Positions 24,001 to 30,000 are shown, counted from the first letter of the stretch. The stretch: 64,000 bases of DNA from an uncultured Arcobacteraceae bacterium (GCA_964022095.1 CAXHZO010000002.1:192001-256000); one strand, 5' to 3'. Made by a program: the numbers.

Positions 24001-27000
24001 TGAGGAAATGTTGTTTCATCAAACTTTCTCATTGTTTTCATAAGCCATGGAACATGAGCATAGTTAAATACTGCAAATCTATCAGTATCTAGTGTAATCA
24101 TTTTTTCTAAAGTCTTTTTAAATGATTCTTTAGTTTGATGTGGTAATCCATAAATTAAGTCCGTATTAATAGAGTGAATTCCAGCTTCTCTAGCTATTTT
24201 AATTACATTTTGAGTTAATTCAAATGGTTGAATTCTATGAATAGTTTTTTGAACAGTCTCATCTAAGTCTTGAACACCAAAACTTAGTCTATTACATCCA
24301 CCTTTTTTAAGAACATCCATGTGTTCTTTAGTGAAAAATCTAGGATCAACTTCACACGAAATTTCAGCATCATCGCTAAAGTTTGGAAAAATTTCTTTTA
24401 TTGCTACAATTACTTCATTTAATTGTTCTGGTGAAAAAAATGTTGGAGTTCCTCCACCAAAGTGCATTTGAGTAACTGTTCTTTGAGTATTAAGATGTTG
24501 TTTTAATATATTTAGCTCTTTTTTTAAATACTCTATATATCTTACTTTTTTATCTTCTTTAGAAGTAAAGATTGTATTACATCCACAAAAATAACAAGCA
24601 CTTCTACAAAATGGCATATGTATATAAAGTGATATTGCCCTATCATCACTTTGATTTTTATAGTAATCTTTTAAATCTTCTTGTGTGAATTGTTCACTAA
24701 ATTCAGGTGCTGTAGGATATGAAGTATATCTTGGACCTGGTTTAGAATATTTTACAAATTTATTAAAGTCAATCATTTATTTTTATCTCTTTTTTGATCT
24801 AGCCATACCATTACACCTTTTTGCGCGTGTAATCTATTTTCTGCTTCTTCAAAAACAAGACTTTGTTCACTTTCAAATACTTCTTCAGACACTTCGTAAC
24901 CTCTATAAGCTGGTAAACAATGTAGGAAAATGGCATTTGATTGTGCTAGTTTCATAGCTTCAGAGTCTACAATATATCCATCAAACTCTTTAACTCTTTT
25001 TTCTTTCTCTTCTTCTTGACCCATTGATACCCAAGTATCAGTAGTCACAACCGTTGATCCTTTGATTGCTTCTTTTGGATCATTCCCAATTATGATTTTA
25101 GCATCACTTTCTTTTGCCATTTCTTGTGCAGTAGCTAAAATCTGTGCATCTACTTCATAACCTTTTGGTGTTGCAATTCTTAGCTCAAAACCTAATTTCG
25201 CTGCCATATTTAGCCAAGAGTGTGCCATGTTATTTCCATCACCAACATATGCTACAACTAAGTTTTTATCTAAACCTGCTTCTTGTATAGTCATATAATC
25301 TGCCATTAATTGAACTGGATGATATTCGTTTGTAAGACCATTTATAACTGGAACTTTTGAGTATTTTGCAAATTCTTCTAATTTTGATTGCTCAAATGTT
25401 CTAATCATTACCATATCTACCATTCTTGATATTACTCTTGATGTATCACTCATAGGTTCACCTCGTCCTAATTGGATATCGTTAGAAGATAAGAAAAGTC
25501 CTATTCCACCAAGTTGGTAAATACCAGTTTCAAAAGATACTCTAGTTCTTGTACTACTTTTTTCAAAAATCATACCTAATGTTTGATTAGGCATATAATT
25601 TTTAAAGTTTCTTTGTTTTGTTTCGTCTTTGATCTTTTTTGCTAGCTCTAGGATTTCTAAAATCTCTTCTTTAGAGTAGTTGGCTAATGTTAAGAAATGT
25701 CTCATTATATTTCCTCAATAAATTTATAAAAAACAAATATTCTATATAATTAAACTTTGAAAAAACTTAAAAATACTTAAAAATGTCTATTTTATGACAC
25801 TTTTGTGACAAAAACACTTATTTCGTGTTAAGAGGAACTAGCTTAAAATAACGAAAAAAAATTGAAGGATTTATTAATGATTGATGAGATTCTAAAGCGT
25901 GATGGTACAAAACAGAAATTTGAGTCATTTAAGATAGAAGATGCAATTAAAAAAGCATTTAAAAGTGTAAATATAAGGTATGACATATCTATATTTTTTA
26001 ATGTTTTATTTGAAGTAAAGCAAAAAAGACTAGCTGCAGTTGAAGATATTCAGGATATTATTGAAAAAGAGTTATATAAAGGAAGATATTTTGAGGCAAT
26101 GAAATCCTTTATGCTTTATAGACATTTTCATAAAATACAAAGAGAACAGGTTTTACAAATAGTTACTGATACAACGTATATAAATTCAACTCAAACAATT
26201 GATGAGTATATAAATGGAACAGACTGGAGAATAAAAGCAAATTCAAATACTGGATATTCCCATGCTGGGCTTATCAATAATAGTGCAGGAAAAGTAATAG
26301 CAAATTATTGGCTTGATAAAGTATATTCAAAAGAAGAGGGTTATGCCCATAGAAATGCTGATTATCACATACATGATTTAGATTGTTTAAGTGGATATTG
26401 CGCTGGTTGGAGTTTAAGAGTATTATTAGATGAAGGTTTTAATGGTGTGAGGGGTAGAGTTGAGAGTAATCCTGCTAATCATTTTAGAGAAGCGCTTGGT
26501 CAAATGGCAAATTTTTTAGGGATATTGCAAAGTGAATGGGCTGGTGCTCAAGCTTTTAGTAGTTTTGATACTTATTTGGCACCTTATGTTTTTAAAGATA
26601 AACTAAAATATCCTGAAGTAAAAAAAGCAATAAGAAGTTTTATATATAATTTAAATGTTCCTGCAAGATGGGGACAAAGTCCTTTTACAAATATTACTAT
26701 TGATTGGACTGTTCCAAGTGATTTAAAAGATCAAATACCTACAAGAAATCAAAAACATCTATTAAAAGACTTTTACGATGAAGAGTTAATGGAAGTAGTT
26801 AGAAAAAAAGGTTTTGACTCTTTTGAGCAGCTTACTTATAAAGACTTTCAAAAACAAATGAATTTAATAAACAAAGCCTATTATGAAGTAATGACTCAAG
26901 GAGATAAAACTGGTCAGCCTTTTACTTTTCCTATTCCTACAGTTAATATTACAGAAGATTTTGATTGGTATGGAGAAAATACAGATTTACTTTTTGAAAA

Positions 27001-30000
27001 TACTGCAAAAATAGGTAGCTCATATTTTCAAAATTTTATTGGAAGTCAATATATAAAAGATAAAAACGGAGATTTATTGCCAAATGAAAATGCATATAAA
27101 CCAGGTCATGTACGTAGTATGTGTTGTAGATTGCAACTTGACTTAAGAGAATTACTTAAGCGAGGTGGTGGACTTTTTGGAAGTGCAGAATTAACTGGAA
27201 GTATTGGTGTAGTTACGATTAATATGGCTAGGCTTGGATATCTACATTGTGGAGATAAAAAAGCTTTGTTTAAACGTCTAGAAGAGCTTATGAATTTAGC
27301 TAAATCAACTTTGGAAAAAAAAAGAGTTTTTATTCAAACACTTTTTGACAGGGGATTATTCCCTTACAGTAAAAGATACTTAAAAGGCTTTAATAATCAT
27401 TTCTCAACAATTGGGGTAAATGGAATAAATGAGATGATTGAAAATTTTTATGGAAAGAATATAGATATTTCTTCTAATCAAGGTTCTAAGTTTAGCTTGG
27501 AAATCTTAGATTTTATGAGAGAAAAAATGCTTACATATCAAGAGCAAACAGGAAACTTGTACAATCTTGAAGCAACTCCTGCTGAAGGAACAACTTACAG
27601 ATTTGCAAAAGAAGATAAGAAAAGATATCGAGATATTATTCAAGGAGGAAGTGAAAAAAATATTTATTATACAAACTCTTCTCAACTACCAGTTGATTAT
27701 ACAGATGATCCATTTGAAGCTTTAAGTTTACAAGATGAATTACAATGTAAATATACAGGTGGTACAGTATTGCACTTATATATGAGAGAGAGAATAACTT
27801 CAATAGAAGCTTGTAGAAAATTTGTAAAAAATAGTATTAGTAATTTTAGATTACCATATATTACTATTACACCAGTTTTTTCTATTTGTGAAATACATGG
27901 ATACATTAATGGTGAATATGAATATTGTCCTAAGTGTGATGAAGAAATTTTAAAACAGGAGAAAAATAATTATGACAAAACAAGAACTGCTTGAGAAAAA
28001 TGCTGAGAAAAGATCAAAATGTATTGTCTATACAAGAGTTATGGGGTATCACAGACCAGTTGAGAGTTTTAATATAGGAAAAAAAAGTGAACATATTCAA
28101 AGAAAAAAATTCAATGAATCAAAAGATTGTACACTCTTTAACTAGATGTACAACAACAGACTATGAAGATCATTTATCTTGTATAGTTTGGTTTATTAGT
28201 TGTAATTTAAGATGTGTGTACTGTTATAATGATAGCTTAGTTTATTCAAAAAATGGTAATTTCTCATTAAATGATATTTTAGCTTTTTTAGAAAAAAGAG
28301 TAGGTTTATTAGATGCTGTTGTACTAAGTGGTGGTGAATCTACAGTCCATGATTTAATTAGATTTTGTAAAAAAATTAAAGAAATGGGTTTTAAAATAAA
28401 ACTTGATACAAATGGCTTAAATCTAAATCAAATAAAACAGCTAGTAAAGAATAATTTAGTAGATTTTATTGCTTTAGATTTTAAATCAAATAAAAAGAAA
28501 TTTTATTCAATAACTAAAACATATAGTTACAATAGATGGCTTGATACATTAAAGTATTTAGTAGGTGTTAAATTTGATTTTGAAGTTAGAACTACAATAA
28601 ATACTAAGTTGTTAAATGAAATGGATATAAATGAAATGATTGATGTGTTATATAAAAATAACTACAAAAAGAAATACTACATCCAAAATTTTATTCAAAC
28701 CTCATCAAATATTGGAAACATAAAATATAATGATTATATAGATATTTTTAAATTAGATTCAAGCAAAGTATCCTTAGAGTTTAGAAATTAAGTAACCTTG
28801 CGAAGATATATTTTGAATTAAATCTCTTGAAGTTTTAACTCTAAGTCTTTTAATAAATGTTCTAAGTCTTTCATCATTTACTTCTTCATTCCATAGGCTT
28901 TGTTTTATTACTTTTGTAGGCACTATTTTTTTATCATCTTTCATTAAAAGGTAAATGAACTCTTTTTCTCTTTTTGTAAGAGTTATTAGTACATCATTTT
29001 TATATAGTGACCTAGAGTTATTGACATATACAAATCCATCTTTAAGGTGTATAGTTTTTTTCTTTTCAAGTTTATTGGCAAGTTGTTCTAAGAATTCTAT
29101 TACTTCATCTGGATCAAATGGTTTTATAAAGTATTTTGTAATCCCTAGGTCAATAGCTTTTAAAAGTTTTTCTTTGTCAGAATGTGCACTTAAAATTATG
29201 ATAGGTATTTCACTATTTATCTCTTTTATTTTCTGAGTCATTTCTAAACCATTGCAATTTGGCATCATAATATCAGTTATTATAATATCTGGTTTTACAC
29301 TTTTGATTTTTTTGAATCCTTCATTCCCATCTTTTGCAGTAGTTACTGAAAAAAATAAATTATTGACAGCTTCTTTTAACAGTTTCGAAAGTTTTTGTTC
29401 ATCTTCAACAATTAGTAGTCTTAAGTTTTTTAGATTTTTCATATATTAACTCCTAAATTGGAATAGATATAGTAAATAATGAACCTTGTGTAGTTTTTTG
29501 GTAGTTTAAGTTTCCATCTAAACTTTTTTCTATGATCATTTTAGACATAAATAAACCAAGTCCCGTTCCTTGAGAACTATGTTTAGTTGTAAAGTATGGT
29601 TCAAATATTTTTTCAACTATATCTTCATCAATTCCTTGTGCATTATCTTGTATTTGCAATAATACATATTTCTTATCATCAATTATACTCTGATTTAGTG
29701 TGATTTTTATCTCTTTTTGAACTATATCTTTATAAATAAAGGCATCTTTTGCATTTTGTATTAGATTTATTAAAACTTGTGAAAGTTCATTTGATATACC
29801 TAAAACCTCATAGTCTTTTGGTACTTCTATTTTAATATTGATATTCTCTTTTTCAATTGCTTTTTTTAATATTAATAAAGCTTCATTTATTGCATCTTTA
29901 ATTTTAAAAGGTCTTCTCTGTTTTTGTGGATTAAAGAAATTTGAAAAATCATCAATTGTTTTTGACATATTTGCAATAATAAACTTACTATCTTCATACA

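Follow-up and report, generated by a model that had tools for sequence, protein, structure and literature searches.

A class III ribonucleotide reductase encoded by two genes, with its predicted glycyl-radical loop on a separate 57-residue protein, in an uncultured Arcobacteraceae bacterium

The window analysed here, a 64,000-nt stretch of DNA from an uncultured Arcobacteraceae bacterium (GCA_964022095.1, CAXHZO010000002.1:192001-256000), carries on its plus strand a class III (anaerobic) ribonucleotide reductase (RNR) in two pieces, followed by an activase gene. The nrdD body gene (25877–27994, +) encodes a 705-aa protein with an ATP cone (residues 5-86), a barrel with Cys175, an MCCR finger loop (415-418), Glu565 and a zinc site (671-687). 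Its C-terminus lies only 18 residues past the zinc site (C671-x2-H...C684-x2-C687), without a glycyl-radical loop or the Gly-radical motif, and it matches NF006126/PRK08270 with 1081 bits. The small gene (27972–28145, +), in the +1 frame relative to the body and overlapping it by 23 nt in an A-rich stretch, encodes a stand-alone glycyl-radical loop protein of 57 aa, with a hairpin (residues 20-29), a conserved core (14-47), an invariant Cys17 and Gly25 as the predicted radical glycine (codon 28044–28046, +). A Shine-Dalgarno-like AGGAG (27957–27961, +) within the 3′ end of the body gene, 10 nt upstream of the small gene's ATG, is the putative ribosome-binding site that the initial annotation had assigned to this gene. 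Overlapping the small gene by 35 nt, nrdG (28111–28791, +) encodes a 226-aa radical-SAM activase (NrdG2; TIGR02495, 167.7 bits, cut-off 131.15). The Pfam NRDD model is divided between the two proteins (positions 2-531 on the body, 530-562 on the 57-aa protein), reproducing the earlier result, and the arrangement first annotated (a two-gene class III RNR with its loop on a separate protein, then nrdG) holds in both coordinates and NRDD anatomy. NRDD is the sole domain match of the small protein; the PFL-type Gly_radical domain (PF01228) has no match there or elsewhere in the genome. This genome, 99.99% complete by markers, contains one NrdD body and one RVMGY motif, so that the pair is its only NrdD, as previously claimed; it also encodes one class I/II RNR large subunit. 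The region contains 17 promoter-like sites, against 19.2 by chance. A domain search identified no intein, intron or endonuclease domain in either piece, and the ORFs overlap at the junction.

The body has the NRDD barrel with finger-loop cysteine and beta-A cysteine and the zinc site of a class III RNR, and the cognate radical-SAM activase gene is present; the Gly loop is found on a separate ORF rather than at the catalytic polypeptide's own C-terminus. The two-gene NrdD is therefore a variant and not a canonical member of the class. Its assignment to NrdDh4 in the initial annotation is borne out by MCCR and by a Phe aligned with T. maritima Ile359, which together match the definition given in a passage of PMC4493059.

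Seventeen positions, including Cys17 and T21-P29, are invariant in all 40 aligned small proteins. TRVMGYHRP, earlier described as invariant, is so in these 40, but its His is replaced by Leu, Phe or Met in some copies beyond them. Aligned through a profile of 56 fused relatives, the small-protein glycine (Gly25) corresponds to the glycine in the radical loop of NrdD from T. maritima and P. copri, and it lies at the turn of a hairpin in a lone model of the small protein (pLDDT 73, pTM 0.32). Neither PDB nor BFVD yielded a fold matching this model at E<=0.001, and a PDB sequence search with the small protein or its 40-row profile found no chain. In one natural fusion (P0017), the tail is 76% identical to the small protein over 41 aa and is modelled with pLDDT 85-93; the P0017 model superposes on P. 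copri NrdD all the way to its C-terminal end (Z 34.7, rmsd 2.5, 555 residues aligned), as expected from its likeness to solved structures, and the predicted fit of the tail reflects this likeness, not binding of free chains.

In the nearest relatives (best 80 of 493 related loci) 78 loci are split, none is fused and two are cut by contig ends, a recount close to the 77, 0 and 3 (without motif) reported before. Small ORFs of these 78 loci (49-65 aa) occupy all three frames relative to the body (60/11/7) and, with automated start choice, begin -59 to +334 nt from the body stop, in agreement with the varied frames and gaps of the initial annotation; a Shine-Dalgarno-like word precedes the automatically chosen start of only 40/78. 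Two genes intervene between body and small gene at two loci (L005, L006). Across 38 split bodies the catalytic residues do not vary, and contigs of other runs (X7; X5 and X6, which are probably two filings of one data set) cross the junction without an indel.

NrdD was identified in 57 of 121 Campylobacterota genomes: 48 carry the split form, eight a distant full-length type and one a fused member of the same clade. The small gene is present in all 48 genomes whose body lacks the loop, while the 64 genomes without NrdD gave no match to the small-gene family. Inspection of the DNA of 41 of these 48 included cases with an in-frame stop, in which AGGAG and ATG follow immediately after it. In three genomes the two parts are unlinked: body at 104-106 kb with small gene and nrdG at 9 kb on the opposite strand (~95 kb apart; G147), small gene and nrdG ~68 kb from the body (G107), or the two on different contigs (G138). 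The small gene stays with nrdG in these separated arrangements and, because the body gene is distant, the small protein must act in trans.

The split is also found in Sulfuricurvum, Bradyrhizobium japonicum, Paracoccus denitrificans and Cupriavidus necator H16, and is present in Alpha- and Betaproteobacteria. In P. aeruginosa, a small ORF may lie between nrdD and nrdG. Within the pHG1 record, to which the search of H16 was confined, a 676-aa body (76,191 Da) is accompanied by a 66-aa small protein encoded 142 nt downstream and by nrdG, and the glycine at residue 650 of this body belongs to the zinc-site motif. A 1999 abstract by Siedow reportedly gives a mass of 76.2 kDa for NrdD and puts forward G650 as the radical residue because a G650A mutant was inactive; if that is what it says, the assignment would be wrong, since residue 650 falls in the zinc-site motif. 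NrdDG of H16 is described as essential for complete denitrification in a passage of PMC2864759 and, as H16 has the split form, the split enzyme appears to work in vivo.

These data bear on two explanations that would make the second gene an artefact or a relic, both of which we regard as highly improbable. The first holds that programmed frameshifting, read-through or splicing yields one protein, or that an assembly error broke the gene; it would draw on the 23-nt A-rich overlap seen here, the same +1 frame in 60/78 loci and the lone in-frame TAA of some Campylobacterota. Against it stand the use of all three frames, gaps of as much as +334 nt, the genes lying between the two parts at some loci, the unlinked pairs, AGGAG and ATG right at the in-frame stops, the agreement of independent contigs and the lack of an intein domain in either piece. 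Neither frameshifting nor read-through can join the pairs of G147, G107 and G138, which excludes them as a general mechanism; the earlier dismissal of frameshift and assembly error is upheld by these pairs and by the contigs that agree across the junction. The frames, wide gaps, intervening genes and unlinked loci point to two genes by design, not error. A decaying pseudogene pair might be entertained because the class I/II large subunit could render the class III enzyme dispensable in air, yet both frames are intact, catalytic residues are invariant across phyla, body and small gene co-occur strictly and essentiality has been reported in H16.

Beyond the nearest relatives the two states are mixed. 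The absence of fused forms, as first noted, applies to the nearest 80 loci, but same-clade fused forms exist in Chitinophaga isolates (727-730 aa) and Helicobacter (739 aa). Likewise, conservation of the split in Campylobacterota (48/57) stands, but in Bacteroidota, where 14/81 genomes have NrdD, it is a minority state (4/14, one being the genome chosen as centre). Eighty of 527 metagenome loci retrieved with a distant query comprise 52 with a stand-alone small gene beside a body, 18 stand-alone without a body in the locus, four fused, five cut and one without the motif. The best 150 representatives at 50% identity include 77 loop-less proteins ending past the zinc site (some possibly fragments, as representatives lack genomic context), 59 fused, 12 truncated and two other. 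A betaproteobacterial-type query gave 3663 clusters of 33-107 aa, again possibly including fragments. In split relatives, RefSeq names the small ORF 'nrdD' on the strength of a domain match, and its name for the body is 'ribonucleoside triphosphate reductase'; neither is marked as a half.

After reduction of 361 rows at 90% identity to 248 tips, among which fused rows are over-sampled by collection, the split/fused label changes 41 times, compared with 63-87 times in shuffles. A 49-row tree of the clade to which the present enzyme belongs rejects both a single fused clade (p-AU 1e-6) and a single split clade (p-AU 3e-5), at least three changes are forced by its well-supported branches, and a fused and a split protein (P0008 and L077) are sisters. 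The junction is a fission-fusion hot spot that has flipped repeatedly. Parsimony suggests that the split is basal in this clade and that re-fusions came later, a direction sensitive to sampling and root; natural fusions unite the two parts with linkers down to 4-8 residues.

Copies of the small gene are also present in viral sequences, where 79 of 80 loci (best 80 of 95) have neither nrdD nor nrdG nearby (flanks of at most 5 kb per side and often shorter). The viral loci form 23 groups by shared flanks. Among 21 viral records examined, the body was seen in one 6.8-kb fragment, and it is absent from all four records that are >=90% complete. The phage small gene has a pN/pS of 0.089 (90 unsaturated pairs, not independent; 51 distinct cores from 68/79 loci), indicating purifying selection, and all catalytic-loop residues are kept, with all four glycine codons in use. 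The immediate neighbour is a holin, endolysin or lysozyme-like gene in 9/23 groups (a raw count), two of these nine best matching virion lysozymes, and the adjoining endolysins belong to several unrelated families. A lysis-gene neighbourhood is odd for a replication helper. Elsewhere the gene is found within a Mu-like early region or close to terminase genes, and G147 has two prophage copies besides its own split enzyme. Records of isolated phages gave no match to the window's small protein at E<=1e-3 and three weak matches to a second query. The likeliest purpose of the lone phage gene, though in our judgement at no better than about even odds, would be to supplement the host's own supply of this enzyme part; phage family phrog_4132 would then gain a function.

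The reading that best accommodates these observations is a working class III RNR of two chains, the smaller of which bears the glycyl-radical loop, and to this we assign a probability of about 0.88; the unlinked gene pairs and the stand-alone copies in phages strengthen it. Gene structure and alignments indicate that both genes are translated separately and that catalytic residues are conserved on both parts, the body carrying the barrel, catalytic cysteines and zinc site and the 57-aa chain the Gly loop and C-terminal tail. By homology, NrdG would generate the radical at Gly25; the small chain would dock non-covalently in the barrel like the covalent tail of fused NrdD and then pass the radical to a finger-loop cysteine. 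Because the body never has a loop of its own, the small protein would be obligatory and not a means of repairing a cleaved enzyme. In glycyl-radical proteins, oxygen breaks the chain at the glycine that holds the radical and, with cleavage at this position, exposure would destroy only the small chain, which could then be replaced. An oxygen-repair benefit of such a replaceable chain for microaerobic and facultative hosts seems slightly favoured; that the small protein is replaceable and constitutive, as the initial annotation had it, is something we infer. At loci L236-L241 small chains are fused to a glutaredoxin-like domain, in line with the body's Glu565, which would suit thioredoxin-type reduction (as set out in part of PMC9669993). 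We give even odds to a wider proposal: that a large unrecognised family of autonomous glycyl-radical proteins of 50-70 aa provides many NrdDh-type anaerobic RNRs with an obligatory, exchangeable radical subunit and so makes these enzymes oxygen-repairable, that phages carry the peptide alone for the host enzyme, that the glutaredoxin-like fusions could deliver both radical and reductant, and that the H16 radical glycine was sought on the wrong chain.

Two further explanations accept the two chains and dispute what the separation or the phage copies are for. The split might be a neutral break in a flexible linker, after which the small chain is neither repaired nor exchanged, a possibility we consider less likely than not: it would account for the 41 state changes on 248 tips, the rejection of both single-clade histories and the coexistence of fused and split sisters, and since fused forms recur (Helicobacter, Chitinophaga), living with oxygen does not require the split, which may be neutral. 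The sampled clade is predominantly split, however, and at least 23 distinct phage flank groups retain the lone small gene under purifying selection, which implies that an extra free peptide has an effect. That effect could be of another kind, with phage copies acting as decoys or signals, for instance titrating NrdG or the body at a late stage of infection, or coupling lysis to oxygen, as the lysis-type neighbours in 9/23 groups and the unrelated endolysin families might suggest; retention of all catalytic-loop residues, with glycine in all four codons, and the copies near terminase genes or in a Mu-like early region make this rather doubtful, a little more so than neutral fission.

If the two-chain reading is right, 'nrdD' and 'nrdG' of split organisms expressed alone would yield an inactive enzyme, and thousands of mis-named small ORFs (the 3663 clusters, fragments allowed for) would be explained. 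The small protein would offer a soluble substrate for studying glycyl-radical installation by activases, and a concrete, testable spare-part candidate in a second class of glycyl-radical enzymes, available in C. necator H16, a strain that is tractable in the laboratory.

Reviews, in the passages available, place the glycyl radical at the C-terminus of the catalytic chain. The statement quoted in the initial annotation, that spare-part proteins are known for no glycyl-radical enzymes other than formate lyases, was located in a 2026 review (PMC13450708), the relevant passage of which leaves other enzymes undetermined. No description of a split NrdD was found in the literature text that could be searched, and subscription papers, supplements or RNRdb notes may mention one; this suggests that a separate radical part for class III RNR has not yet been described. 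'NrdDa', considered as a possible name of a split half, was rejected as it is a subclass name in the corresponding passage of PMC4493059.

Compared with NrdDh4 as presented in parts of PMC4493059 (NF006126/PRK08270), the enzyme shares the barrel, MCCR, Phe at the Ile359 position, Cys175, Glu565, the C-x2-H zinc site and NrdG2, but the structures described in the passages seen of PMC11226230 and PMC4493059 have zinc site and Gly loop on one chain, whereas here the chain ends between them. Split class II NrdJa/NrdJb of P. aeruginosa and phage RNR genes split by introns, inteins or endonucleases similarly encode a catalytic RNR subunit in two genes (PMC4860495, PMC3653736, in part); these differ in class or break points, no mobile element is present at the junction studied here, and the same passages describe no separate-gene glycyl-radical loop for them. 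The closest functional parallel is with the PFL cofactors GrcA/YfiD and T4 Y06I, the latter a phage-encoded counterpart (PMC8683613), which are likewise small free radical-glycine proteins, activated by radical-SAM enzymes, acting in trans and encoded by phages, according to excerpts of PMC8683613 and PMC13450708. For the small protein described here the likeness is drawn from genes, and the evidence for trans action as a free small protein is wholly genetic (unlinked genes and phage copies). GrcA/YfiD are 127 aa and of PF01228 type, whereas the present protein is of NrdD type, ~57 aa, without PF01228, and the partner in the split NrdD is never made with a loop of its own. The small protein is functionally like GrcA, yet it is not a GrcA.

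Fusion of the small glycyl-radical protein to a glutaredoxin-like domain at its C-terminus was identified at six loci (L236-L241) and in protein representatives P0101, P0105 and P0117, giving products of 142-157 aa (e.g. L238, 4968-5420) with a CPKC motif in the added domain. Here the gene order is loop-less NrdD body, fusion gene, nrdG (radical-SAM activase), and Candidatus Peregrinibacteria is the named source of two of these fusions. The same tail domain is carried by full-length NrdD in P0147 and P0197. Inteins appear to be present in many long representatives.

At two loci (L005 and L006) the nrdD body is separated from the small gene by two unrelated genes (about 850 nt). 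P0237 (836 aa) is a radical-SAM activase fused to NrdD. In P0029 and P0040, both single-copy proteins, the small peptide is joined to NrdG; these two joins may be assembly frameshifts. A second nrdD copy on a Bradyrhizobium plasmid (NZ_CP066353.1, 3381-5191) has its body broken over two frames, again with the small gene downstream of it.

Additional, prophage-borne copies of the small gene (L025, 1501-1665; L217, 3958-4134; L218, 3957-4145) in Campylobacterota genomes G015 and G147 lie between holin-like genes and downstream lysis-region genes. The ANMV-1 virus (KP703175.1) encodes a stand-alone 144-aa protein (L320, 2680-3114) in which an NrdD-type glycine loop is combined with paired cysteines reminiscent of a zinc site. 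This protein may be an autonomous radical domain of larger size; no NrdD body is found in the 6 kb covered.

In the window, an acyl-CoA-ligase-like gene and glutamate-mutase-like subunits, tentatively so labelled from reading their translations, form a cluster (18757-23291, minus strand) upstream of hemN-like and argF-like genes.

Distant loop-less bodies (P0145, P0157, P0164, P0171 and kin) terminate with an altered zinc site, from which the last cysteine is seemingly missing; speculatively, the invariant cysteine of a partner chain could complete it. In the NrdD body of Cupriavidus necator H16 (L316, 1262-3292), Gly650 lies within the zinc-site motif, outside any radical loop, a position that bears on the assignment in a 1999 study, which reportedly proposed G650 as the radical site.
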